Shown in pieces: positions 1 through 18,673 of a stretch of DNA of 18,673 nt (the first letter of the stretch is position 1; every line of letters starts with the position of its first letter). The DNA comes from a virus, in the IMG/VR virus record IMGVR_UViG_3300045988_025756, positions 1 to 18,673 of that record; one strand, written 5' to 3'. The notes under the pieces were generated by a model. The model had not been told where the DNA came from, made no database searches, and worked only from the letters and a program-made list of their open reading frames with translations. Position numbers and translations under genes: made by a program.

Positions 1-219
1 CTTTGGTTATTGAGCTTAAAGATAATTTTTACGATGTTTGTATAGATAGGGGAGGGCCCCCAGCAGCTATCCTTTTTCCACAACCGTTCTGTTCTGTGTC
101 TTGCTCTTGCGTTTTGTCTTGTGTTTTTTATTGCCGTTCTTGTTCTGCCATCTGTTATCGTTTCTGTTGTCTTCTGTTTTGCCTGCCTCTTTTCTGTTGT
201 TGATTCTGCGTGTTGTTTT
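1..219. repeat. Left inverted terminal repeat (perfect part)
   Basis: Bases 1-219 are the exact reverse complement of 18455-18673. I checked this block by block. The first mismatch is at 220 versus 18454. Confidence 0.97.
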
Positions 220-336
220 ATCTCGTAATTTAAGCGCGTAGATTTCTCGCTGTTTTTCTGTTGTTCGGCGTGTTGTGTTTGTGGTGTGGTATTATGTAAC
301 TATCAGCTAAGGAAAGGAAGGATGGTAATTGAGATG
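220..336. repeat. Imperfect inward extension of the left ITR (promoter, leader and first 5 codons)
   Basis: Conserved blocks are shared with the reverse complement of 18307-18454: TTAAGCGCGTAG, TGTTGTTCGGCGTGTTGTGTTT..GTGGTGTGGTATTAT, GGAAAGGATGGT(A/G)(A/G)TTGAGATG. Indels and mismatches lie between the blocks. Confidence 0.85.
258..300 (+). promoter_or_regulatory. Candidate left-end early promoter (extended -10 type)
   Basis: TGgTATTAT at 287-295 fits the extended -10 pattern TGnTATAAT with one deviation. No good -35 is present. The block is conserved in mirror image at the right end and lies ~27 nt upstream of the ATG at 322. Confidence 0.5.
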
Positions 337-2226: not shown

Positions 2227-3333
2227 TCACTTTCTTATACCTGATTGTTGTAGCAAGCCGCCAAGTATCATGCTGAATTCCGCCTTGATTTGCGGTGTTT
2301 CAAAACGTAACCGTCCAACGCGATAAGCGTTCAGTACTTTCTGCGTCATGTCATCGGAACGTTTGAGCATGATGCAATCATTATCGACCAGTCGGTAATC
2401 AAACGTAAAATCCCTAGTGATTTTCGGCTGTTTTTTTGAGATGATATACAATACTTCATCGGTATTACTCAATTGTTGATATACGTTGAAAATACCGTAT
2501 TCGGCGGTCCTTAGCGTGAAAGCATAACCGGCGTTGTTAAAATCACTAATGAGAGTATTAGCGTTATCCCTAAAATCATTATTGATTGCATAATTCGCAT
2601 AATTTTCATCGTACTTGCGTAGGAACGTGCCGAATTTGGATGTGGCTACCTTGGCACTAAACCCGCCATAATCGGCTAATTCCACCATAACGAAGCCATC
2701 GCAATATCGTTGGTATTGCGTGTGATTATCCAACTGCGGCTTAAGGTTAATGCTGAATGCGCTGAAATACGGGTTAGCAAGGGTTACGGCATTACTGCAC
2801 ATGATGACACGAACGCGGTCGTTCCAGCGGTCAACAGTATTATAAAATTCCTCAAGCGCCGTAACCTCGCCCGCAAGGTAACGCATGTTGTCGGGAAAGA
2901 TTTCATCAAAAACAATGGTTCGCACTTTGGGGTATGCAACTGATTTGACTTGTCCGGCCTGACTGAGGGCGATGAAGTACCCCATGATATGCCATGTTGG
3001 GCGTGTCTTGCCGTGCTTGTCCGTGATGGCGTCCCTATCATCCAGCCAGTGACATTCGGCTTGATTCCCCGACACTCGAAACTCTAATTCCGGGTATTGT
3101 TCCGCGATGTCTGCAAACCACGTTCCTTTGTTTTTTTGTTCCTCCGCCGTCCGGCGTAGATAGATGAATTGCCAGCGTTTTTTAATCCAGTCGCCGATGA
3201 CAAGTTTTTTGGCACCGTAGGTTTTGCCGAGGCCGCGAGCGCCGATAATGAACATCCAAGGCGCGTGATAAGATAATACGCGCCCATAATCGTAATAATC
3301 GCCCTCACCTAGTAGCCTTTCCATAATATTCAT
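2227..3333 (-). CDS. DNA encapsidation (packaging) ATPase, phi29 gp16-like
   Basis: VLSYHAPWMFIIGARGLGKTYGAKK...QFIYLRR matches phi29 gp16 MLSYDRILNFVIGARGIGKSYAMK...QFIYVRR (Walker A). TIVFDEIF is the Walker B motif. RVRVIMCSNAVTLANPYF matches RVRCICLSNAVSVVNPYF. No SD is present, and an alternative ATG lies at 3324. Confidence 0.93.
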   Translation of the reverse strand: MNIMERLLGEGDYYDYGRVLSYHAPWMFIIGARGLGKTYGAKKLVIGDWIKKRWQFIYLRRTAEEQKNKGTWFADIAEQYPELEFRVSGNQAECHWLDDRDAITDKHGKTRPTWHIMGYFIALSQAGQVKSVAYPKVRTIVFDEIFPDNMRYLAGEVTALEEFYNTVDRWNDRVRVIMCSNAVTLANPYFSAFSINLKPQLDNHTQYQRYCDGFVMVELADYGGFSAKVATSKFGTFLRKYDENYANYAINNDFRDNANTLISDFNNAGYAFTLRTAEYGIFNVYQQLSNTDEVLYIISKKQPKITRDFTFDYRLVDNDCIMLKRSDDMTQKVLNAYRVGRLRFETPQIKAEFSMILGGLLQQSGIRK

Positions 3334-3387: not shown

Positions 3388-4602
3388 TCAGAAGTTCGGT
3401 GGTGCGCTGGTGCCGTCCCATACATTCAGGAGCGAGTAGGCGGTGTTGTAGCGTGTCCCGTATGGTCCGAACGGGGATGTATTGAGGATATTATTATACA
3501 GTTGGGTGAGTGATGAAGAATGGGGCACGTTCAACGCGCCTGCCGGGCTTTGGTGATAAGCGCAAGTCCACAGTATCTGCATTTTCGCATCATCATACGT
3601 CTGCGGGTAGCTCTTGTAATCCTGTGCGAACTGATTACGCTGGCCTTGCCGTGATTCCGTGCGTCGCGCCCACGTCCGGAATGCCGCAACTTCGCTGCCG
3701 GTCATTGCTCTATCGAATGTGCCGCCCGATTCCATGAGCGCGGCGATACTCGGCGCGGCGGCGGCAAACGCCTCATATCCTACAGCGTCCACCGCCCTCA
3801 TCGCGTTCAAGACCTGCAAACGGCGTCCGAAACTCCACTGTGCGATGCCGATACCCTGATTATTTGATTCGACCGCATCCCAGCGCAATGATGACTCAAC
3901 GGTGCCGATTACATAGAGCGCGTATGAACTTTTCCCGTCGCCCACACTTGGCGTGCCCTGACCCCGGTCGGCGTCCGGCTGACCCGTGCCGCCGCGATAC
4001 ACCCAAGTCTGGGCGCTTGCCTTATAGAAAATGGCCTGCGATGATGTCGTGCCCGAGCCGCTATGATATACGAGATTGTCGCCCTGCAATTGAACCCACG
4101 CGGAGATATCGCCGTCCACACTCACGCCCGGGTTATTGCCGCCCGCCGGATTATCACCGGATTCCGGCGGTTCCGGCAATGCCGTTGGATGCAGATAGCC
4201 GAGTAGCTGCGAGCCTTTCATAAGCGGTAAGGTTCGGTGTACGGCGGGCGTCGGGTTTTGTGTCAGTACATCGATGTCGTCGCCTTGGATACCACCCCAC
4301 ACGATGGCTACGTGACTGCCGGGGTAGTTTTGACTGCCGAACTTCCAAAACACGACATCGCCCATGCCGGGCGTATAATTTGCGTCTTTTTTTTCAAAAA
4401 CGCGCCCCACGGCGGATGTGGTGGGGAACATGGTGTAATTGCCGTCCGCGTAGCCTGTCGGGGTGATGCAATCACCTAACGACAGATTGTAATTGTCCAT
4501 GCAGTATTTTGCCCATAGGTCCCAGCATTGGGCACCGTAAGCCCCGTCCATATCCCAATATTGGTTTTGGGTACGTTCCAACCATGCCTGTACGTCTACC
4601 AT
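3388..4602 (-). CDS. Tail-associated peptidoglycan hydrolase (N-terminal CHAP peptidase plus C-terminal phage tail lysozyme-like domain), functional analogue of phi29 gp13
   Basis: CHAP catalytic context: GAQCWDL (Cys) and PGSHVAIV (His). The C-terminal GIGIAQWSFGRR resembles the G-x-G-I-x-Q-W motif of the phage tail lysozyme family. The gene lies between the fibre genes and the ATPase. Confidence 0.82.
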   Translation of the reverse strand: MVDVQAWLERTQNQYWDMDGAYGAQCWDLWAKYCMDNYNLSLGDCITPTGYADGNYTMFPTTSAVGRVFEKKDANYTPGMGDVVFWKFGSQNYPGSHVAIVWGGIQGDDIDVLTQNPTPAVHRTLPLMKGSQLLGYLHPTALPEPPESGDNPAGGNNPGVSVDGDISAWVQLQGDNLVYHSGSGTTSSQAIFYKASAQTWVYRGGTGQPDADRGQGTPSVGDGKSSYALYVIGTVESSLRWDAVESNNQGIGIAQWSFGRRLQVLNAMRAVDAVGYEAFAAAAPSIAALMESGGTFDRAMTGSEVAAFRTWARRTESRQGQRNQFAQDYKSYPQTYDDAKMQILWTCAYHQSPAGALNVPHSSSLTQLYNNILNTSPFGPYGTRYNTAYSLLNVWDGTSAPPNF

Positions 4603-4611
4603 GATATTAGT

Positions 4612-4641
4612 ATACCCCGTCCGGCGTACCGGACGGGGTAT
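4612..4641. other. Perfect 13-bp-stem hairpin immediately upstream of the tail-lysin ATG
   Basis: ATACCCCGTCCGG-CGTA-CCGGACGGGGTAT. Its last base is the first base of the parS site. It overlaps a TATACT -10-like box at 4609-4614. Confidence 0.8.
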
Positions 4642-4656
4642 GTTTCACGTGGAACA
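4641..4656. promoter_or_regulatory. parS: parS site (ParB/Spo0J binding centromere), B. subtilis-type
   Basis: TGTTTCACGTGGAACA is the reverse complement of TGTTCCACGTGAAACA, the canonical B. subtilis parS 16-mer. The site is intergenic. Confidence 0.8.
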
Positions 4657-4680: not shown

Positions 4681-4715
4681 AATAATAATATACCCCACGA
4701 CGGTAAGTCGTGGGG
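4681..4715 (-). terminator. Rho-independent terminator after the fibre gene
   Basis: A 9-bp GC-rich stem (CCCCACGAC / GTCGTGGGG) with a 5-nt loop. On the minus strand it is followed by TATATTATTATTTAT. It lies ~20 nt downstream of the stop at 4736. Confidence 0.7.
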
Positions 4716-4735
4716 TGTGGGGTCGGTGGGTATTG

Positions 4736-6718: not shown

Positions 6719-7513
6719 TTACTCCCATTCTCCATAATTATGGCAGTTACTGAAAATAGTATCATACGAGCCCCACACCTGCATGAAACACGGTTCGAGG
6801 CTTCGCACGATTTCCATGTCCACGTTGATGATGGCGTTACGGTATTCTTGTATGAGGCTCATGGCGCTCTGGGAGCGGCCCGACGTGTGGGATTTGGTGC
6901 TCCCATCTGTAGCGTCGGGTTGCCATTCCGTGCTGGATGTACTATGGGACTGGGAAGAGGTATCTTGCGTGCTATGGCTACTGCCGTCCGTATCCGCTTG
7001 CGCCTGATTGGCATGAGTCGCGTATCGAGCAAAATCACCTTGCACGCCGGTTGCGGGCACTTCCGAGTCGTAAGACTGGGACTTGGTGCTACTTGAGCTG
7101 GTGCCGTCCGAAGAGCTTCGGGTCGCACTATCCTGAGAGGCGCTGGTTTTGCCGCTGGACTGGGCTACAGTATTGGACAGGCTTTCACTGACCATTTCTA
7201 TAGTGTTCAATGGGTCATATTTCAAAGCTAGCGTCCTGTAGCGCTCATTAAAATATGGCATGATTTCCGACATCGTCATCCCCAGATAAAAGATGAACTG
7301 TTGCGCGGTTTCCTGTCCTATCTCCCGAAGCGCGTAATGGCGAATGATTTTCTCGTTCAATTCCGCGCGATGACCTTCATCGTAAATCGGGTAATAGTCG
7401 GCGCTGAGATGCAGTTCGGCGTCCGTGTCGTATCCGAACGCAATGAGATTGCCCAATGTTTCCGTGTATTCGCCGGGCGTTGCCATCGCATAGGCGCTGA
7501 AATCCTGTGTCAT
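6719..7513 (-). CDS. Lower collar protein (phi29 gp11 position) with a Ser/Thr-rich insertion
   Basis: The gene lies immediately after the portal (TAATG overlap), as gp11 follows gp10 in phi29. The N-terminal YPIYDEGHRAELNEKIIRHYALREIGQET...EIMPYFNERY resembles lower-collar proteins of small podophages, from memory only. Confidence 0.6.
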   Translation of the reverse strand: MTQDFSAYAMATPGEYTETLGNLIAFGYDTDAELHLSADYYPIYDEGHRAELNEKIIRHYALREIGQETAQQFIFYLGMTMSEIMPYFNERYRTLALKYDPLNTIEMVSESLSNTVAQSSGKTSASQDSATRSSSDGTSSSSTKSQSYDSEVPATGVQGDFARYATHANQAQADTDGSSHSTQDTSSQSHSTSSTEWQPDATDGSTKSHTSGRSQSAMSLIQEYRNAIINVDMEIVRSLEPCFMQVWGSYDTIFSNCHNYGEWE

Positions 7514-8469
7514 TACAATACACCTCCGATACCCGCGTCGTATGACGCGGGCATGTCGATATCAGTTGTACCATTGGCGCTGGAATCCAGCGCGTTGGGC
7601 ACTCCGGAGCTTTGCGCGTCCGCATACTCCACCCACACGTTCAGTTGCGGCCACAATCGGTTGATTTCGGTCGCCGCCGCCTGCCGCGCCTTGAGAAAAC
7701 TCAAACGAAACACGTCTACCTTTTCATTGGCTTGCGCCACCTCATCGGAAATGAGCCGTTCTTTTTTCTCGGTGCCGCTGGACTGGATGCCCAAATACCC
7801 CAGCACCTCGTTGGTTACCTGCGCTTTCTGCTGTACAAACTTGTCCAGCAGATACGGGGTCGTGTTGGGCCACGGCTGGAACATGCTACCGGGGTCCAGC
7901 GAATCGTATCCGATAATATAGTCCTGACCATCCTGCCGCTGTTGCAACATGTTTTGCACGGTGAGCTTGGTACGCGGGTCGGCGGTGATGATAGTGGGAA
8001 GTTTCAGGCTCTCCAAATTGACGTCATACGCCTTGTCAATGTCCGCCAATCGTCGCGCGTACTGCCATAGGATGTCCTTGAATGACATGCGCATACGATT
8101 ATCCCAAATGGGGATGCATTCCCGGCCCGCCTTGAGCTGCTTATAATGGTAGTTGACGCCCACCGGCTCGAAGCACGTCGGATTATTGTAGACGTTCAAT
8201 CGGCCTTGATATCCGGCCTGTGTCACGAGGAACCGGCCTATACGTTTGTCCTCGAAAAACAACGCGCAACCGTATTCGCACAGACACATTTCCAGCCATC
8301 GCTCATCCACGGTCGGCGGCAGCCCCCGCCAACTGAACCGGTTCAAAGCCAGTTCCGCCAGCAAATGATAGTACATTGCGTCAAGGTCGGCGGCGCGCGC
8401 CTTGGCGTAATTGCCACGCGGATGCAACGCGCCGCCCCTACGATTCTGATTTTTCCTCGACCTAGACAT
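7513..8469 (-). CDS. Portal / upper collar connector protein, phi29 gp10-like
   Basis: [31 protein letters not shown] matches phi29 gp10 [51 protein letters not shown] matches [20 protein letters not shown]. The N-terminus is basic. Confidence 0.92.
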   Translation of the reverse strand: [318 protein letters not shown]

Positions 8470-8484
8470 GCCTCTAGTATAGCA

Positions 8485-10734
8485 CTAGAATGAGATGCCC
8501 GGCAATGGGTCGTTATCCGCCCAATCGGTCACGCCGATATCATCCGGGTTAGTCCATATAGTAGCCCCAGACTCGAACACGCCTTTAATGGTCTGCCGAT
8601 ACTGCTCGGGCAAATCACCTCGCACGTAACACTCTTGCATCTGCCAGTAGGTGAATTTTGTCATACATTCCAGCGATTGCGGCGGCGTGATGAAACGCTG
8701 GATAAAATACCCGTAACGCAACATGTACTCTCCGACGCTCCGCAGAGCTGAGGGTGCGCACGTCTTAAATCGAACCAACACCCCGACAATACCGTTCGCG
8801 AGGTTAAAACCGTCTCCGCCGATGGCACCGGATGTGGTCGGGGGTGTTAATTGCATCTGCTGTACCTGTGCATTGATACCCGCAATGGTGTTTTGATAGT
8901 CTCCGAACGCGGAACGTTGCGCGTAATCCGCGTTCATATCCGCCATATTTTGGGCCAACTGGTTTGAAAGCGCTGTAGTCTGAGAGCCGTATGTGTTGGC
9001 CTGACTTGTTGTGGCCGCGTTGGTACTCAGCGAGTTCGCCGTGGAAAGTTGGGCGGCGGTATTGTTGATACTGCGGTTTGCTTCAGTGTTGACACCATTC
9101 ATGACCGCACCGCCTAATGCCGATACCGCGCCCCCGACATTGCCCGAAGCGGCGTTACCCGCCACCCCGACCACGCCGTTAACCACGTTATTCAGCTGTG
9201 CGAGGTCAGCTCGCTGATTGTTGATATACGTCGTGTTGTCCAGACTGGTGTTAAGCGAGGTTGCTTGTATCGCGTTATTGGCGTTGCGGTTGCCGATAGC
9301 GAGTTTGTTGGCTTGGGTATTGTACTGGTTTTGCATGGCCGTGGCCGCGAGAGACTGACTGATGCCCATCTGCGCTTTTTGGTACGCCCAGTCAGCGGAC
9401 TGTTGGCTGTAGGAACGAGTGTAGGCACTGTTTGCCATTGCCAACTGTGCGCCATTGTTGACTATCACAAATTGAGGGAAATTGCTGATGCCAAACGCGG
9501 CGTCCAACATTTCCCCGCTATCAATGGGCAACCCATTGTTTTTATCAAGAGGAGCAATCTCGCTTGCACCCGCCTTATTGTACCCAACCGGGTAAAAGTT
9601 CAAGCGCGCGCCATTGGGCGCGTAATTATGCACCTCTCTAATAACCAGATTATCGCTTTGGATATTTTCGGGCTTATAGGTGATATTAGTGCCATTCAAG
9701 CAAGTGCATTCAACAGTAGAATAGGGGTAGCATTTGAGTTTTTTAAGGTTTTTATAACGTTTAGGGATATTAAAATTATCACGAAAATCATTAATGGTAA
9801 TAATGTCTTCATATCTGCTGGGCGCATTTGTGGCCGACTGGGGGAAACGGTAGATACGATTATTTAATTCCGAAGGGAGTGTTTTCCCAAACAGCTTATC
9901 TACGACATAGCCGGATTGCTTAAGAAAGTCATCATCTAAAGAGGGTATCATGTACATGTTTACAATACCCTGTGTTATCCATGAAAAAGTAGAGCCCACT
10001 CCCATAAACACTTGGATAGACTGGATGTCCTTAAAGTACAGTATTTCAGCACCGTTAGCCATGTTCTCAAACAGAGAGCCGCCCGCAGTAGTGAGAGACG
10101 GTTTTTCCTGACTGCCCGCGTCCGCTGACAAATCTACCGTGCTCACGACTATTACGCCGTAATTCAGATTTTTCCCGTCCATGCTGATAAGAGACTTGTA
10201 CTGTTGGATTACCGTCACCATTTCGCTACCGGTGTCCAGCCCTTCGGGTAGTGCGAGATAACTGCGACCATAATCGGTCATCTGGTTTTCGTTGGCAATG
10301 CCGATATGGCCCCGCACCACATAGCATGAACCAAACCTAAGTACATGCTGGAACGACTGCCAAACGTCCAACTGTACAGTGAGCTGAGTAGTGTACGCAT
10401 TGATGTAATCCACGTGGTTGATGAAATAATACCAATACCGTGGCGCTTCCAAGTCGGGGTAGTCGTTATACACCACGACATAGTTGTAGTTGGACGCCTC
10501 GTTAAATGGCAGTTCGACGCGCACGGGTTGGCCGAACATGTGCATGACTCCATGCACCCTGTCAATGCCGGGCCGTCGGTCGAACCATTCCTGTTGTTTC
10601 TGCGGTGATTCGAACCGGGCTAGGTCACGGTAACTACTATCCCACGGCACGTTACAGAGTTTCAGCGACGTGTTGGGCGTCCATTGAGCCCAGTTAAACG
10701 TCGCCTCGACGTTAGGGTTGATATCTCTCAGCAT
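8485..10734 (-). CDS. Tail knob / distal tube protein, phi29 gp9-like
   Basis: N-terminal similarity: CNVPWDSSYRDLARF...WF versus ADVPFSNDYKNTRWF...WF, and WYYFINHVDYINAYTTQLTVQLDVWQSF versus [31 protein letters not shown]. C-terminal similarity: RYGYFIQRF...IKGVFESGATIWTNPDDIG versus KYGYKINRV...IRTIFDNGITLWHTDNIG. A Gly/Ala-rich loop (VVGVAGNAASGNVGGAVSALGGAV) resembles the gp9 membrane-active loop. I moved the start to ATG 10734 (SD AAAGGGA), because the upstream 14 codons are only the parS palindrome. Confidence 0.88.
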   Translation of the reverse strand: MLRDINPNVEATFNWAQWTPNTSLKLCNVPWDSSYRDLARFESPQKQQEWFDRRPGIDRVHGVMHMFGQPVRVELPFNEASNYNYVVVYNDYPDLEAPRYWYYFINHVDYINAYTTQLTVQLDVWQSFQHVLRFGSCYVVRGHIGIANENQMTDYGRSYLALPEGLDTGSEMVTVIQQYKSLISMDGKNLNYGVIVVSTVDLSADAGSQEKPSLTTAGGSLFENMANGAEILYFKDIQSIQVFMGVGSTFSWITQGIVNMYMIPSLDDDFLKQSGYVVDKLFGKTLPSELNNRIYRFPQSATNAPSRYEDIITINDFRDNFNIPKRYKNLKKLKCYPYSTVECTCLNGTNITYKPENIQSDNLVIREVHNYAPNGARLNFYPVGYNKAGASEIAPLDKNNGLPIDSGEMLDAAFGISNFPQFVIVNNGAQLAMANSAYTRSYSQQSADWAYQKAQMGISQSLAATAMQNQYNTQANKLAIGNRNANNAIQATSLNTSLDNTTYINNQRADLAQLNNVVNGVVGVAGNAASGNVGGAVSALGGAVMNGVNTEANRSINNTAAQLSTANSLSTNAATTSQANTYGSQTTALSNQLAQNMADMNADYAQRSAFGDYQNTIAGINAQVQQMQLTPPTTSGAIGGDGFNLANGIVGVLVRFKTCAPSALRSVGEYMLRYGYFIQRFITPPQSLECMTKFTYWQMQECYVRGDLPEQYRQTIKGVFESGATIWTNPDDIGVTDWADNDPLPGISF

Positions 10735-10759
10735 ACTATCCCTTTCATAAAGAAGGGAG

Positions 10760-10775
10760 TGTTTCACGTGAAACA
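10760..10775. promoter_or_regulatory. parS: parS site, perfect consensus palindrome
   Basis: TGTTTCACGTGAAACA. Flanking GGGAG/CTCCC extend it to a 26-bp perfect palindrome (10755-10780). It lies in the capsid / tail-knob intergenic gap. Confidence 0.85.
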
Positions 10776-10797
10776 CTCCCTTTTATTATATCGCAGA

Positions 10798-10908
10798 TTA
10801 GGCGACTGTCAGTGCCTGACCGCTGACACCGAACAGCGCTGCCGTCAGCTTGGTGGAACCGGCGGCCACTCCAGTGACTAGGCCGGTATTGTCCACTAGG
10901 GGTTCGCG
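10798..10908 (-). pseudogene. Relic 3' fragment of a Big_2 (Ig-like) domain coding sequence
   Basis: The minus-strand frame reads REPLVDNTGLVTGVAAGSTKLTAALFGVSGQALTVA-stop. This parallels the capsid C-terminus VSESGVITGVKAGTSDISATLFGVSGKKQVTVS-stop. The frame opens just after a TGA and has no ATG or SD. Confidence 0.65.
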
Positions 10909-11034: not shown

Positions 11035-12762
11035 CTAGGATACTGTCACCTGCTTCTTACCGGACACGCCGAACAGCGTGGCGGAGATATCAGAGGTGCC
11101 CGCCTTGACGCCCGTGATAACACCCGACTCGGACACGGTGGCGTTGGCCGGGGTGCCGGATGTCCACGCGGCCTGCGCGGTCACGTCGGCGGTTCGACCG
11201 TCAATCATGGTCGCCGTAGCGGTCGCCTGTGCCGTATGACCCACAGTCACACCCGAGGCATTGACGGCAATCGACGCGATGATAGACGGATTGAATCCGA
11301 TGACGCCATCGCCGACCACCGGCACACTCAGAGCGGCGGACACGGTGTCCGGCACTTCCGGCGTCGCCGGATTCGTATACAGGGCGGTAGCCGTGACCGG
11401 AATAGCGGTGTTCGGTTCGTCAAGACCGACCACCAGCACGCCGGTGGGCGAAATGTACGTGTAATCGCTCTTCGGCTTGGCGGTGTCGCCAATACGATAC
11501 TCAACCGCATTCGAGCGGAACGTGGCCGTGCCATCGTTGGTAATGGTCGTATCGGCAGTGACCTGCACCGCTCCGCCACGCGCCACGTTCTCCGGCGTGG
11601 TCGAACCGCCGCCGTACATAGCGAGCTTAAGTTGGAAGGTCGGCGTCTTGGCCGTCGTACCGGTAGGTGCCACCACGTTCGTGGTGGCGCCCTTTCCCGT
11701 CCAGAACATGATGGCGGGGGCGAAGCCGGACACGCTAATGATGTGCTGGATATGCAGGTAATGGTTGACCGAATTGATGTTGACCGGGTTAACCTGCTGG
11801 GTCATCCCGCTGATAACGGGAATGTCAATGAGGAGCTTGTCCGTGGTGAGGATGGCCTGCACGCCGTCCATGTCGAACTTGTCTTGCGGGATGACGATAA
11901 TCCGGTCGATGGTCGGCTCGGCGTCCGTGCGCTGGAACACTGTGGCAAGGCCCTGCACGTCAAGCGCGGACTTGACTTCGGGCGAACAGAACAACACGAG
12001 TTCGTCCGGGCGGGCGAACGTCGGCATGTGACGCGCATTATACCGGGTGCTGACAAACTTCAGAGTGTCCGCCCATGCGCGAATCTGACGCAACATGTCG
12101 CGGGCGTCCGTTTCCGTCGAACCCATGTTATTGAGGTCATGCTCCATGTGGACACGCCAATAGCCGCCGAGCTTCGCATACTCGACGAACTGGTGGCACA
12201 TGGCCTCAAAAAGGTCAACCTCGGCGGCATTGTAACAGGAGGTGAGAATCTGGGAAGTGAGCGAGGCCAGACCGTTTTCGGACGTAAAGGCACGCTGGAG
12301 CGTCTTATCAGCCGTGGTCGCCGGATAGAAATGGGCAAAGTCCAGACGGTGATAGAGCGAATCCACGTCGATTTTCCACTTGCGGAAATTATCCGCGCCG
12401 AGATATTCCGCGTCCGGGTCATAGACCTGAGCGAGCGGCATGCCCACGGCGATTTCCTGCCACGTGTCGCCATACGCCTGAGATGCACGCTGGAACACGC
12501 TCAGCGGGTTGTTCCAACGCCACGTGTTCACGTAGGTGCCGCCGATACGGTTCACCAGCGCCGAATAAAACTCGTTCTTCAGTTGGGTGGATGACATGAG
12601 GGTGGCCATCTGCCTATCCATGTTCATCTGGGTGGCCGAGGGCATACGCCGCTGATATTCGGGTGATGCCTCGTTACGAATCATATTGAGAATCTGTGCG
12701 TTATTGAATTCGGTGAGCGGGCGAAGCTGCTGCTTCGGCGTCACCACTGGAGTGGTTGACAT
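11035..12762 (-). CDS. Major capsid protein (phi29 gp8 position) with C-terminal Ig-like Big_2 domains
   Basis: A large ORF directly after an acidic scaffold gene. The C-terminal ~180 aa look like Big_2 repeats (..ATVSESGVITGVKAGTSDISATLFGVSGKKQVTVS). The SD AGGAAGGA is present, and ATG 12762 is preferred over 12771 on spacing. The long antisense ORF is a shadow ORF. Confidence 0.85.
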   Translation of the reverse strand: MSTTPVVTPKQQLRPLTEFNNAQILNMIRNEASPEYQRRMPSATQMNMDRQMATLMSSTQLKNEFYSALVNRIGGTYVNTWRWNNPLSVFQRASQAYGDTWQEIAVGMPLAQVYDPDAEYLGADNFRKWKIDVDSLYHRLDFAHFYPATTADKTLQRAFTSENGLASLTSQILTSCYNAAEVDLFEAMCHQFVEYAKLGGYWRVHMEHDLNNMGSTETDARDMLRQIRAWADTLKFVSTRYNARHMPTFARPDELVLFCSPEVKSALDVQGLATVFQRTDAEPTIDRIIVIPQDKFDMDGVQAILTTDKLLIDIPVISGMTQQVNPVNINSVNHYLHIQHIISVSGFAPAIMFWTGKGATTNVVAPTGTTAKTPTFQLKLAMYGGGSTTPENVARGGAVQVTADTTITNDGTATFRSNAVEYRIGDTAKPKSDYTYISPTGVLVVGLDEPNTAIPVTATALYTNPATPEVPDTVSAALSVPVVGDGVIGFNPSIIASIAVNASGVTVGHTAQATATATMIDGRTADVTAQAAWTSGTPANATVSESGVITGVKAGTSDISATLFGVSGKKQVTVS

Positions 12763-12784
12763 GATAATCATTCCTTCCTAATCA

Positions 12785-13313: not shown

Positions 13314-14774
13314 TCATAGCACAAAAACATGGCCGTCATCATTGAGATGACGGGACCCCGGCAGAAACTCATCATAGGGGATGGGGGCGGCACGATGCAC
13401 GCCACTCAAACGCATTACCGTGTCACCATTCGTTTCCACGCCGCAATATTTACGATTGCCGAGAATGCGGAGCCTCTCATAGGTATGGTCGTTTTTCCAC
13501 GCCCCAAGCTTCCGGTTATCCGTTTCCACACCTTCGGGCGCGTCCAACCCTTCCAATATCATGCCGTCGGTGTCGGCGTAGAGTACGCGGTCGGCGTTTG
13601 CGTTCATCGCGCGGGATAGTGTTTGACGCCCGTAGGCGTTGACATAGGCGGCGGTCGGAAGCCACGCCAGACTGTTGGCCGACTCGGGCTTGTCCACGGT
13701 AAAATCCACACCCCCGTCCGCCGATGGTTTCGGGTGCAGCATTGGCCGGTACAGCGAGGCCCCGAATTTTCCTACCAACGAGTTCAGTAACAGTTTCGCT
13801 ATTTGCCGACGCTCTCCGGTTGCGGTTTGTTTTACGCAAAACCATTTATCGACATAGTTGTAATAAAGTCCGTGCGATTTACGGAATTTCCAACCGCCGA
13901 CATGCTCCCACACATGGATGTCATAGTTTTCGGTCAGCGTTTCCCAATCCACATCCGTGACTGGCATAGTTACGACGCCTAACGTACTGTCCAAGCGTTC
14001 GCCCTCATACCCCCATACGGGTAGGATGTTGGTGAGCGTCGCTGTTTTCCCCTTTTTCAATCTTGCATCAAACGCAATGATATCGATATGCAGTGGATAA
14101 TCATTGTCATGTCGATATTCGCCGTCATACCATATGGGTGAGTCTACCGGCATGGGTGTATCGCGCATGATACTCGGGTAGAGGCTATTTACGTCCCAGC
14201 TCCGGCAATCCCGGTATTCGCCCGGCTTGCTGTGTACTATCGCCCCATAGTAGGCGGGGCGCATCCGATGATAATCGTTCTTGTCCAATGGTGGGAAATG
14301 GCGTTTGAATCCGGCGTAATCCCCGTCGATATAGTCGGTCATCGCCATGGATGCTATCGTAGTGCCCTTGAAATTCAGGGCGGCGCATTCCTGTGCGATG
14401 TTCCACGTGGTTTCCAAATCGTCCGCACCGCCGAATGTTTCACGTGAAACATTCAGCCCATCGTCACGCGTGACATTGCGCACGTCCATAAAATCCACGG
14501 TGATGCCGCCCATGCGCACGCGGAAACTGTAAAAATGGCCACGAATATTAAAAGTGCCCCATATGCCATTCTTGGCCGGATTGGATTGTAATGGGAGTCG
14601 TTTCAATAGTTCGGCGGCTATAGGCTTGATGTCCTGCCATCCGTGGGCGCACCATACGCGCGTATGATAATCGAGCATGGTGAGGCGGATGATGGCGGTT
14701 GCCGTCAATGGTTCCATACCGTCATCCGTCAATAGTGTTGCGCCGTCTGTTGCCGCCGTTCGACGCTCTCTCAT
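13314..14774 (-). CDS. Protein-primed family B DNA polymerase (phi29 gp2-like), compact 486 aa
   Basis: Motif A: WDVNSLYPSIM. YPLHIDIIAFDARLKKG matches phi29 YPLHIQHIRCEFELKEG (TPR1 region). Motif B: QIAKLLLNSLVGKFG. A TPR2-length insertion is present. Motif C: VLYADTDGM. A KxY-like motif (NRKY) and a YxG(G/A) motif (YYGA) are also present. Confidence 0.95.
   Translation of the reverse strand: MRERRTAATDGATLLTDDGMEPLTATAIIRLTMLDYHTRVWCAHGWQDIKPIAAELLKRLPLQSNPAKNGIWGTFNIRGHFYSFRVRMGGITVDFMDVRNVTRDDGLNVSRETFGGADDLETTWNIAQECAALNFKGTTIASMAMTDYIDGDYAGFKRHFPPLDKNDYHRMRPAYYGAIVHSKPGEYRDCRSWDVNSLYPSIMRDTPMPVDSPIWYDGEYRHDNDYPLHIDIIAFDARLKKGKTATLTNILPVWGYEGERLDSTLGVVTMPVTDVDWETLTENYDIHVWEHVGGWKFRKSHGLYYNYVDKWFCVKQTATGERRQIAKLLLNSLVGKFGASLYRPMLHPKPSADGGVDFTVDKPESANSLAWLPTAAYVNAYGRQTLSRAMNANADRVLYADTDGMILEGLDAPEGVETDNRKLGAWKNDHTYERLRILGNRKYCGVETNGDTVMRLSGVHRAAPIPYDEFLPGSRHLNDDGHVFVL
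14436..14451. promoter_or_regulatory. parS: parS site, perfect consensus, embedded in the DNA polymerase ORF
   Basis: TGTTTCACGTGAAACA. It extends to the 22-bp palindrome GAATGTTTCACGTGAAACATTC (14433-14454) and encodes NVSRETF of the polymerase. Confidence 0.8.
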
Positions 14775-14786
14775 GATTCCATCCTT

Positions 14787-15731
14787 TTAGTGTCGTGTCG
14801 CGCTGGTCATCCATTCATCAAGTCGCGTCTCCACGTCGCCCGCATCCGCTTTTACCTCCCATTTATGTGTCTTATCATTATACCATGCGGCTTCTCGTAC
14901 CACGATGCTGAAATTCGTGTTGTTTATCAGCCATCGTTTTTGACGGTTCGACAAGGAGGCGAATTTTTGGGCTATGCTAGAATCGAATGCCTCAAGCTGC
15001 TGTGAGACCCTATCAAAATCCGCAACCCCCTCGTTCTCGGAAATTTTTCTAGTACCTGCATGCAATGGCGCTCGGCCTATAAGCCCAGCGTATTCGAGTA
15101 TCTCTCGTTCAAGTCTCCGCCGGCTCCCTTCTCGTATCATCACACGCGCGTGGCTTATTCCACGCTCCGAACCGAACACGTTCGCACGGTTGCGTGTGAG
15201 TTCGTCTCGCGCCGAACCGCCGACCGTGTGAGTGCCCAACACGTCAAACGGCGACTCTCCCGCACGTTCCATCTCACGCATTTCAGCCACGGTGTAGCGG
15301 GCCATACTCAACGCCTCGAATTGTTGGGCGCGTTTGATTTTCTGCCGTGCTTCGATACGGCGGCGTTGTTGCTGTCGTAATGTTTTCCGACGTTTTGACG
15401 GGGCGGCGGCGATTTCCGCATCGGTAATCGGCGGGCGCGCCGCCAGCACCCTATCAAGTTTCGTGATATGCACGTCGGGAACGACTTGATACGGTTCATT
15501 GTCACGCGCCCTTAAGGCTTGCTGCTGCTCCCCGAATTCATGCCCAATGCGGCGTGCGACCTGTTCGAGCTGCTGGGCGCTGAGTTTGCCTAGGAATGTT
15601 TCGGTGATTTGTTTTGGGAGGCGTCCGTTACTGTAATCCCTTACCGCTCGTTCTTGACGTACCTGTGCAGACCTGATGGCGGCGTTACGTTTCAGATTGT
15701 TGGCGCGTCGGTTGTTTTTACGTTTAGCCAC
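14787..15731 (-). CDS. Candidate terminal protein (replication primer)
   Basis: The gene lies immediately upstream of the protein-primed polymerase, as phi29 gene 3 precedes gene 2. The protein is 314 aa with a strongly basic N-terminus (MAKRKNNRRANNLKRN). It uses a GTG start with a strong SD (AGAGGAGGGG). I recognise no sequence family, so the call rests on position only. Confidence 0.55.
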   Translation of the reverse strand: MAKRKNNRRANNLKRNAAIRSAQVRQERAVRDYSNGRLPKQITETFLGKLSAQQLEQVARRIGHEFGEQQQALRARDNEPYQVVPDVHITKLDRVLAARPPITDAEIAAAPSKRRKTLRQQQRRRIEARQKIKRAQQFEALSMARYTVAEMREMERAGESPFDVLGTHTVGGSARDELTRNRANVFGSERGISHARVMIREGSRRRLEREILEYAGLIGRAPLHAGTRKISENEGVADFDRVSQQLEAFDSSIAQKFASLSNRQKRWLINNTNFSIVVREAAWYNDKTHKWEVKADAGDVETRLDEWMTSATRH

Positions 15732-15857: not shown

Positions 15858-16295
15858 CTACCCACGGTCTTTTTCCGACACTAGTTCGAGGTCAAAGAAT
15901 TTAAATCCACGGCGACTCCTCTTTTCCACAACCTTGAGAACAATCGGATGGCTCCACTTGTCCGGCGTGCCGAAAATGGCGAACAGATTGCCAAAAGCGT
16001 GCGCCAACGTGGGGGAGGCGGCGGCAAAGTCGCCCTCCTCCGCATGAATAACGACGCGGGTAGAAGGGTTGATTTCGCCCGTTTCCTGATTGGTAACCTC
16101 TATGGCCTGCGCCAGCACGTTGGTCACGTGCAATGGCTCATTGAGACGCTCGTCCACCTTGTCGGCGGTCTGCATGGCGTTGTACAGCGCCATTTTACCG
16201 TCCATAGTGGTGGTGTCGAAGAAGTGTGACACGGCGTTGGTACCGTTCGCCGCAAAATTATTGCCGTTTGTTACGGTCAGTTCGTTGTCAGCCAT
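15858..16295 (-). CDS. Putative single-stranded DNA-binding protein (lactococcal-phage SSB-like family)
   Basis: The pattern MALYNAMQ...RLNE...V.NV......V.N.ETGE......RVVIH.EEG.....S......FGNLFAIFGTPDKW resembles the phage SSB family, from memory. The gene lies in the replication module. Confidence 0.5.
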   Translation of the reverse strand: MADNELTVTNGNNFAANGTNAVSHFFDTTTMDGKMALYNAMQTADKVDERLNEPLHVTNVLAQAIEVTNQETGEINPSTRVVIHAEEGDFAAASPTLAHAFGNLFAIFGTPDKWSHPIVLKVVEKRSRRGFKFFDLELVSEKDRG

Positions 16296-17237: not shown

Positions 17238-17489
17238 CTAACGCCTTTCAATCAACAAAGTATTAGCCAACGCCATCGCGTCAACCAGCATATGAGCCAC
17301 CTGCGCATAATCGCACGCATCAAACGCCACAGCCGACCAAATCAAACTACGCCTGCCACCAGACTGAGACCGCCTCGATACCGCATACCGCAGTTCATAC
17401 ATCCGATTATGAGGACAATACACCAAACACACATCACCGTCCTTAAACCCGGACGGAAACACGGACACAACCTCATCACTCACCATCAT
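17238..17489 (-). CDS. Hypothetical small early protein
   Basis: The start MMVSDEVV is preceded by GGGGGGTG and overlaps the stop of the upstream gene. I judge the track N-terminal extension to be non-coding. Confidence 0.55.
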   Translation of the reverse strand: MMVSDEVVSVFPSGFKDGDVCLVYCPHNRMYELRYAVSRRSQSGGRRSLIWSAVAFDACDYAQVAHMLVDAMALANTLLIERR

Positions 17490-18321: not shown

Positions 18322-18454
18322 CCTTTCCGCATTCCTTGGTTGATACTTATATAATACCACACCACAAAAACACAACACGCCGAACAACACAAAAAACTAT
18401 AAAAAAACTACGCGCTTAAAATATAGACAAAACCACACGCTTAAAACCTGAAAC
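18307..18454. repeat. Imperfect inward extension of the right ITR (promoter, leader and first 5 codons)
   Basis: Mirror image of 220-336 with indels (see left copy). Confidence 0.85.
18346..18395 (-). promoter_or_regulatory. Candidate right-end early promoter (extended -10 type)
   Basis: On the minus strand, TGgTATTAT occupies plus-strand coordinates 18351-18359, within the conserved mirror block shared with 258-300. Confidence 0.5.
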
Positions 18455-18673
18455 AAAACAACACGCAGAATCAACAACAGAAAAGAGGCAGGCAAAACAG
18501 AAGACAACAGAAACGATAACAGATGGCAGAACAAGAACGGCAATAAAAAACACAAGACAAAACGCAAGAGCAAGACACAGAACAGAACGGTTGTGGAAAA
18601 AGGATAGCTGCTGGGGGCCCTCCCCTATCTATACAAACATCGTAAAAATTATCTTTAAGCTCAATAACCAAAG
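18455..18673. repeat. Right inverted terminal repeat (perfect part)
   Basis: Exact reverse complement of 1-219. Confidence 0.97.

Follow-up and report, generated by a model that had tools for sequence, protein, structure and literature searches.

We analysed the complete sequence of IMG/VR virus record IMGVR_UViG_3300045988_025756 (18,673 nucleotides; "the window" below means this whole stretch) and found that it carries three exact copies of parS, the 16-bp palindrome of ParABS, which is reportedly the system that segregates the origins of bacterial chromosomes. The window is a complete linear phi29-like genome of 18.7 kb bounded by inverted terminal repeats (ITRs), and it appears to belong to a clade of virulent-looking, protein-primed podophages of Bifidobacterium. 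We put at about one half the probability that the sites are loading sites for the ParB protein of the host, that they are kept by selection, and that the partition complex formed on them passes the non-integrated phage genome to daughter cells.

The 16-mer TGTTTCACGTGAAACA occurs exactly at 10760-10775 (site 2) and at 14436-14451 (site 3), as stated in the original prediction, a reading of this DNA made from the sequence alone, and TGTTTCACGTGGAACA is found at 4641-4656 (site 1). That prediction was right about the location of site 1, but it counted the site as a one-mismatch variant, and this part does not stand. The reverse complement of the site is TGTTCCACGTGAAACA, which matches the consensus TGTTNCACGTGAAACA exactly, and because site 1 reads in this way on the other strand, all three sites are exact matches to the consensus of chromosomal parS, which is what they had been taken to be. 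A scan of the window at up to 3 mismatches gave no match beyond these three. In shuffles that preserve dinucleotide composition the mean was 0.13 matches and none of 200 reached three, which upholds the earlier claim that the sites are beyond chance. A decayed fourth site, GGTTTTGCGTAAAACA, lies in the polymerase gene, where the consensus of the clade is GGTTTCACGTGAAACA. The same gene has, at 14399-14410 and 37 nucleotides from site 3, a perfect half-site together with the core (TGTTCCACGTGG).

Two artefacts were considered and ruled out. An effect of chance or base composition is excluded by the shuffles together with a parS-free sister clade of similar GC content (described below), and an assembly chimera with host DNA is excluded by the position of the sites within phage genes and by their recurrence across about 80 independent contigs.

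The phage was predicted to have no ParA or ParB of its own, and this held in Pfam and PHROG scans of its open reading frames (ORFs), lax thresholds included. Ten unassigned ORFs were scanned to E<=1 in Pfam and E<=0.1 in PHROGs, and the other ORFs to E<=0.01 or 0.001; there was no match to a ParA, ParB or helix-turn-helix (HTH) family, and no ribbon-helix-helix (RHH) domain was detectable among the phage proteins.

Conservation and turnover of the sites among relatives

A capsid-based search of IMG/VR provided 80 relatives of the window, with 90-95% identity in the capsid and 82-96% nucleotide identity in the polymerase gene. These genomes (1.25 Mb in all) contain 234 parS-like sites, of which 100 are exact, 104 have one mismatch and 30 have two, and at least one such site is present in 78/80 of them. 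The control was a set of 80 genomes (1.29 Mb) from the sister clade that resembles Bifidobacterium phage BP1, which come from the same environment, have the same gene order and differ little in GC content (52%, as against 54%). The control set was free of sites even when 2 mismatches were allowed. The scan of relatives that the original prediction had proposed therefore came out in its favour, with sites that are conserved and under selection in one clade (234 in 80 genomes) and absent from the other (0 in 80).

Within the clade of the window the sites occupy five non-homologous positions: two in the polymerase gene, one in the tail coding sequence (CDS), one in the 5' untranslated region (UTR) of the tail gene, and one in the 5' region of the hydrolase gene. 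The start of the tail gene is the most informative of these, and here the window and its relatives (81 genomes) were compared. The UTR site is found 39 to 47 nucleotides before the ATG in 35/81 genomes (the window and 34 relatives), and it is exact in 32 of the 35. All 35 read RFESPQKQ at the position of the CDS site, which has decayed in them. In 39/81 genomes the CDS site is intact (RFVSRETQ, at +122) and the UTR palindrome is missing, while 7/81 have neither site and 0/81 have both. This pattern shows a site that was apparently kept near the tail gene though its exact location changed. Because the genomes have the UTR site or the CDS site and never both, and because the two clades differ so sharply, we think that the sites are maintained by selection rather than by chance.

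The polymerase sites offer evidence that seems real but moderate. The 18-nucleotide block of site 3 is exact in 49% of 75 distinct relatives, where it ranks 21st among 481 six-codon windows, and the clade-consensus block of the fourth site is exact in 43% of relatives and ranks 25th among the 481. At the positions of these sites the encoded peptides differ in other Bifidobacterium phages, with NVSRET set against TELFET or a gap, and WFHVKQ against WYGRKS or WGDLKQ. The same is true of the tail CDS site, where RFVSRETQ is set against RFEDEAAR. Since the peptides differ in this way, the coding sites appear to have been built by substitution in stretches of protein that tolerate it.

Where site 1 is present in relatives it always abuts the same hairpin (4612-4640 in the window), and it does so behind at least four different upstream gene modules. 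At no more than 1 mismatch, this hydrolase-proximal site is found in 16/52 genomes. It has been lost repeatedly, both by decay and by a 10-bp deletion, which suggests that individual sites are dispensable while the set persists.

parS in other phages, and the likely host

In a scan of IMG/VR for the exact 16-mer we found at least 120 loci. About 20 of the matches listed come from distant phi29-like phages (protein identities of 25-35%, GC content of 32-49%), and several contigs of this kind among the same matches hold the site within longer palindromes or in both ITRs. In one distant contig (L181), exact parS sites are found at 132-147 and 11579-11594, about 130-146 nucleotides from each contig end and so probably inside the ITRs. 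In another (L128, 9796-9827), parS is at the centre of a 32-bp perfect palindrome, TCACCCCA-parS-TGGGGTGA. The cultured phages with parS are phi29, Nf (2 exact sites) and Glutamicibacter phage Voltaire. The identical 16-mer has arisen repeatedly in lineages that share no small regulatory proteins, and for this reason we favour a common reader supplied by the host, namely ParB.

The parS sites of phi29 and Nf are reportedly bound by the host Spo0J/ParB for entrapment of the phage genome in the spore (Meijer et al. 2005, EMBO J). In phi29 (EU771092) our scan found four exact TGTTCCACGTGAAACA sites (10445, 15903, 17243, 18760) and one weaker site, in agreement with the published count of five parS in this phage, where Spo0J takes part in segregating the genome into the prespore (PMC2731898). 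With four exact sites and no ParAB of its own, phi29 is indeed the right precedent, as had been proposed. It is, like the window, a protein-primed, ITR-bounded podophage of about 19 kb, with several exact TGTTNCACGTGAAACA sites dispersed over coding and intergenic DNA. Site 1 of the window is the same 16-mer as the four exact phi29 sites, and the phi29 site at 17243 lies directly after a stop codon and beside the TD1 terminator hairpin, a setting that resembles those of sites 1 and 2. The differences are that the likely host of the window is a non-sporulating actinobacterium, that Spo0A boxes are not enriched in the window, that all of its genes are on one strand, that one of its sites is fused into a 26-bp hairpin, and that its proteins are 27-32% identical to those of phi29. 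Given protein identities as low as these, the sites were probably acquired independently of phi29. The original prediction regarded exact consensus sites in a phi29-like phage as undescribed; this goes too far, because phi29 holds four and Nf two, so that exact consensus parS in this phage family was already known. While the parS strategy of phi29 is known, what appears to be new is its occurrence, with a predicted function, in a phage of a likely non-sporulating host.

Voltaire (NC_073479) is a parallel in this respect, as a cultured actinobacterial phi29-like phage with exact TGTTTCACGTGAAACA sites by the tail gene and a non-sporulating host (Glutamicibacter). Its two sites are in tandem, 3 nucleotides apart and followed by a T-run, and they fill a 60-nucleotide spacer directly upstream of the tail gene. 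Unlike the dispersed sites of the window, they are adjacent, and the capsid proteins of the two phages are 29% identical. There is no mention of parS, ParB or Spo0J in the description of Voltaire (PMC9331655) or in a review of phi29-like phages (PMC11476376). Our literature search for host ParB or parS in phage genomes returned only the work on phi29 and Nf and self-encoded cassettes of mycobacteriophages, and it found nothing on parS in phi29-like phages of the gut or of actinobacteria.

The chromosomal ParABS systems (Lin and Grossman 1998; Livny et al. 2007; in gut bacteria, PMC10197239) have the identical 16-bp palindrome, and their reader, host ParB as a clamp dependent on cytidine triphosphate (CTP), is presumably the same. 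In contrast, the sites in the window are viral, are not near oriC, have no adjacent parAB operon, and are carried by a linear, protein-capped replicon. The ParAB/SopAB systems of P1 and N15 and the parABS partition cassettes of mycobacteriophages (PMC7157519) resemble the window in having a centromere-like site for inheriting a non-integrated phage genome, but those phages encode both ParA and ParB and have element-specific centromeres, whereas the window encodes neither protein and uses the sequence of the host. It is not a self-encoded ParABS cassette.

We are fairly confident, from protein similarities, that the host is a Bifidobacterium. Aligned over 99% of its length, the endolysin shares 71% identity with the lysin encoded by a siphovirus prophage on the chromosome of Bifidobacterium bombi; lysins from two further Bifidobacterium species share 69% and 58% with it. 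B. dentium phage BD811P1 has a lysin that is 75% identical to the catalytic part of the endolysin, and the CHAP hydrolases of the window and of BP1 share 55% identity. Among cultured phages, those with the nearest capsids all infect Bifidobacterium, and phages of other actinobacteria come next. A search of bacterial genome contigs with the capsid protein gave only matches to its immunoglobulin (Ig)-like domain in unrelated bacteria. No host information came from the 34.9-kb public contig CYGL01000165 (GCA_001292545), a probable assembly chimera in which about 9 kb of unrelated phage genes, on the opposite strand, begin right behind the last gene of a relative.

Bifidobacteria are non-sporulating and are not known to have Spo0A. 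The Spo0A box TGTCGAA, which reportedly suppresses the lytic cycle in the phi29-type system, is not enriched in the window (4 seen, 2.8 expected; 54/200 shuffles reach 4). For these two reasons the spore-trapping role of phi29 parS would not apply here, and the forespore half of the role suggested in the original prediction, segregation into daughter cells or forespores, falls away. B. longum is reported to have ParABS and consensus-type parS, and host chromosomes carry 1-10 parS sites (PMC10197239). In actinobacteria generally, ParABS is coupled to the cell pole, with ParB/ParA tied to DivIVA/Wag31, and ParB is linked to FtsZ as well as DivIVA (PMC4255298).

Surroundings of the sites and other features of the genome

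The perfect 26-bp palindrome that had been reported in the gap between the capsid and tail-knob genes is present at site 2, where parS is extended by GGGAG on one side and CTCCC on the other. It folds into a hairpin with a 13-bp stem (RNA fold -24.7 kcal/mol, z = -5.6) and looks like an intrinsic terminator, an attenuator or a 5' stem-loop. The stem extension is kept in relatives, as GGGGAG/CTCCCC or AGGAG/CTCCT. Where the spacer is short, as in some relatives, the capsid stop codon immediately precedes the hairpin, with TTATTTTTT behind it; the U-tract after the hairpin is canonical in these genomes (UUAUUUUUU) and weak in the window (UUCUUUAU). Because the hairpin of the relatives follows the capsid stop codon and has a T-run after it, site 2 is probably also transcriptional. 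The earlier description of site 2 as a parS thus stands on its consensus match, and we add to it that the palindrome is also a strong RNA/DNA hairpin with a probable role in transcription. A terminator pattern scan of the window did not list the palindrome, which we would guess is probably because a perfect palindrome has no loop.

The sigma-70-like promoter match near site 2 ends 4 nucleotides before the palindrome, which would place parS at about +1 to +26 of the predicted tail-gene transcript, so the hairpin could also be the 5' end of this transcript. Relatives keep the TATAAT element, but the short-spacer variants do not keep the -35 element. A terminator stem would be cheap housing for a palindromic parS; the hairpin accounts for the flanks of site 2 and not for its core. 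In the capsid/tail spacer we noted a 32-amino-acid ORF remnant on the minus strand, MDNTGLVTGVAAGSTKLTAALFGVSGQALTVA (10798-10896), whose sequence is similar to that of the Ig-like (Big_2) C-terminus of the capsid protein (…GVITGVKAGTSDISATLFGVSGKKQVTVS). Because of this remnant, the long spacer with its promoter-like element and parS hairpin looks like a relic of recombination.

On the coding strand near site 1 the order is terminator, TGGATAATAT, parS, second hairpin and ATG. The second hairpin (4612-4640) is kept in nearly all relatives, with compensatory changes in its arms, and it is followed by TATACT-AATATC-ATG. The TATACT is a putative -10 element six nucleotides before the hydrolase ATG, and there is no Shine-Dalgarno sequence; together these suggest that the hydrolase mRNA is leaderless. 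Leaderless mRNAs are common in actinobacteria, and such a message would fit the host proposed above. A family of hairpins of the form ATACCCC…GGGGTAT, each followed by TATA(C/T)T, includes those at 4612-4640 and 4692-4716 and others in relatives.

The genome has a GC content of about 53%. Its ITRs are perfect over 219 nucleotides and 95% identical over 256. Every recognisable gene is on the minus strand, in an order typical for phi29-like phages of actinobacteria (Table 1). An Rfam scan of the window gave nothing above threshold and no packaging RNA (pRNA).

Table 1. Coordinates of the parS sites, neighbouring elements and genes in the window
Feature	Position	Strand	Remarks
Left ITR	1..256		Presumed terminal-protein-capped end
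Amidase endolysin	1117-1842	minus	
Holin	1852-2217	minus	
gp16 packaging ATPase	2227-3333	minus	Pfam Podovirus_Gp16
CHAP/lysozyme hydrolase	3388-4602	minus	
GC-rich hairpin	4612..4640	minus	TACCCCGTCCGG-TACG-CCGGACGGGGTA; conserved; immediately downstream of site 1 on coding strand
parS site 1	4641..4656	minus	TGTTCCACGTGAAACA; intergenic, upstream of CHAP/lysozyme hydrolase gene
Terminator-like hairpin and T-run	4692..4716	minus	Ends the upstream 300-amino-acid gene
Lower collar	6719-7513	minus	PHROG match
Upper collar	7513-8469	minus	PHROG match
gp9-like tail knob	8485-10734	minus	Pfam phi29_gp9_C
26-bp perfect palindrome	10755..10780	minus	GGGAGTGTTTCACGTGAAACACTCCC (GGGAG + parS + CTCCC); then TTCTTTAT on coding strand
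parS site 2	10760..10775		TGTTTCACGTGAAACA; capsid/tail-knob intergenic, 41 nucleotides upstream of tail ATG
Sigma-70-like promoter match	10785..10812	minus	CTGACA-16 nucleotides-TATAAT; 11/12 consensus positions; consensus match only
Phi29-type major capsid protein	11035-12771	minus	Pfam Phi29_MCP
Protein-primed family-B DNA polymerase	13314-14774	minus	Pfam DNA_pol_B_2
Decayed fourth parS	13828..13843	minus	GGTTTTGCGTAAAACA; in polymerase gene; clade consensus GGTTTCACGTGAAACA, W-F-H-V-K-Q
parS site 3	14436..14451		TGTTTCACGTGAAACA; inside DNA polymerase gene, reads N-V-S-R-E-T
Gene in terminal-protein position	14787-15731	minus	314 amino acids
Single-stranded DNA-binding protein	15858-16295	minus	Pfam Phi29 SSB
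Right ITR	18418..18673		

We noted several other features of this genome. The terminal 62 nucleotides (1-62, compare 18612-18673) are repeated internally at 350-411 with 95% identity, so that the presumed replication-origin end is present a third time, just inward of the left ITR. In this phage and in every cultured phi29-like phage of Bifidobacterium, the protein-primed DNA polymerase has only about 470-486 amino acids; the enzymes of phi29, Av-1, Mendel and Reje are longer, at about 566-590. The deficit seems to be N-terminal, in the exonuclease part, as the PHROG match begins at profile position 200. The last gene (671-1117, 148 amino acids) is clade-specific, with a weak match to a membrane protein, and at 971-1088 it contains degenerate repeats with a period of 15/30 nucleotides (GGCCACGTCGGCGATGGAACCG…).

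What the sites may do

In the reading that we favour, the 16-bp palindromes would act as nucleation points for dimers of host ParB once the DNA has been injected and while it replicates. The dimers would then close as CTP-dependent clamps and spread along the 18.7-kb genome. ParB is reportedly a CTP-dependent clamp that runs off free DNA ends (Soh 2019; Osorio-Valeriano 2019; Jalal 2020), and the covalent terminal proteins at the phage ends would hinder this run-off, the capping and the roadblock being extrapolated from phi29 biology. The partition complex would be handled by host ParA, possibly with SMC and the polar DivIVA scaffold, as a chromosome origin is. The non-integrating genome would be positioned and inherited by daughter cells while lytic growth is slow or stalled, in a carrier state without spores. 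The site 2 hairpin would probably have a second function, either as a 5' stem-loop or as a terminator or attenuator that separates the capsid gene from the tail gene. That host ParB binds the sites seems very probable from their sequence, while partition or positioning as the selected function falls somewhat short of even odds.

Several observations weigh against this reading. The features of the genome fit partition, titration and a role in transcription alike, and the assignment to Bifidobacterium rests on lysin and proteome similarity. Synonymous-site conservation at the polymerase sites is only in the top 4-5% of windows; loss of single sites is frequent, whether through decay, a 10-bp deletion or removal of the hairpin; and the mutual exclusion of the UTR and CDS sites may reflect a single recombination of two linked modules rather than repeated compensation. 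On scanning, parS was absent from GA-1, Cp-1, 44AHJD, Av-1, Mendel, Reje and PineapplePizza, and from the four cultured Bifidobacterium phage genomes scanned (BadAztec1, BadAargau2, BP1 and BD811P1). Because these cultured phages and the BP1-like clade do without it, parS is dispensable for phages of this type.

Titration, the first alternative, would make the phage genome a sponge for ParB. Replicating genomes, in hundreds of copies with 3-4 sites each, would draw ParB off the chromosomal origin sites, SMC loading and the control of ParA would be lost, and host segregation and division would be derailed during lytic infection to the benefit of the phage. Several sites of predicted high affinity on a small, high-copy genome would suit this purpose, as host chromosomes have just 1-10 sites (PMC10197239) and actinobacterial ParB is tied to FtsZ and DivIVA (PMC4255298). 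The frequent loss and gain of sites at different places is also what one would expect if their total number counts more than their position. We nevertheless consider titration unlikely, both the sabotage and its supposed benefit, since the documented role in phi29 is segregation and not titration, the sister clade in the same host genus manages without sites, and a block of division is of doubtful benefit in a cell that will soon lyse.

ParB could instead act as a transcriptional switch, with ParB bound at promoter-proximal sites and spreading from them, repressing or timing the late and lysis genes according to the ParB state of the host. The positions of several sites point this way: site 2 begins 4 nucleotides behind the promoter match, site 1 is preceded by a terminator and the -10-like element TGGATAATAT and followed by the hydrolase start, the two sites of Voltaire are in the spacer before the tail gene, and a tail-proximal position is kept in both alternative configurations, UTR or CDS. 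Two conserved sites are, however, far inside the polymerase gene, 39 genomes have their tail site within the CDS, at +122, and the promoter calls are consensus matches only, with a -35 element that is not conserved. Silencing by chromosomal ParB is also generally weak, and we regard a switch as quite improbable.

If the reader were encoded by the phage, the 16-mer would be the operator of a phage DNA-binding protein, and its identity with parS would be incidental or a case of mimicry. The phage does have several small clade-specific early proteins without a detectable family, but none with a detectable HTH or RHH domain. The match to parS is exact at every specified consensus position, and many distant phi29-like contigs, as well as phi29, Nf and Voltaire, have the same sequence but do not share these small proteins, all of which makes such a reader very unlikely. 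Least probable of all, at long odds, is that the sites are only RNA or DNA hairpins (terminators, attenuators or mRNA stabilisers) and parS an accident of a convenient palindrome: the stable hairpin at site 2, its maintained stem extension and the T-run right behind the capsid stop codon in relatives would be accounted for, but the sites in coding regions and an exact 16-mer at five positions would not, and both the sister clade and the window hold several other hairpins of unrelated sequence.

Loading of host ParB for partition is the reading to which we return, and it has a broader form that we hold to be doubtful at present: that integrase-less, virulent-type gut phages are inherited in Bifidobacterium as a linear episome capped by terminal proteins, by way of the host ParABS, and that this arose independently of phi29 and also in Voltaire. 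To our knowledge, phi29, with its spore entrapment, is the only studied phage that borrows the centromere of its host without partition proteins of its own. The same device, independently evolved and selected in phages of non-sporulating actinobacteria (Bifidobacterium and Glutamicibacter), would, if true, imply a more general payoff, which might be inheritance of the non-integrated genome, positioning within the cell, or sabotage of host segregation. The parS-free sister clade and the culturable Voltaire make this question directly testable, and the phages would also provide a natural test of how ParB clamps behave on short, linear, protein-capped DNA. If a carrier state based on partition is indeed what the sites support, then protein-primed phages would in general persist by hijacking host parS, beyond the setting of sporulation, and this would bear on the coexistence, over years, of "virulent" phages with their hosts in the gut.

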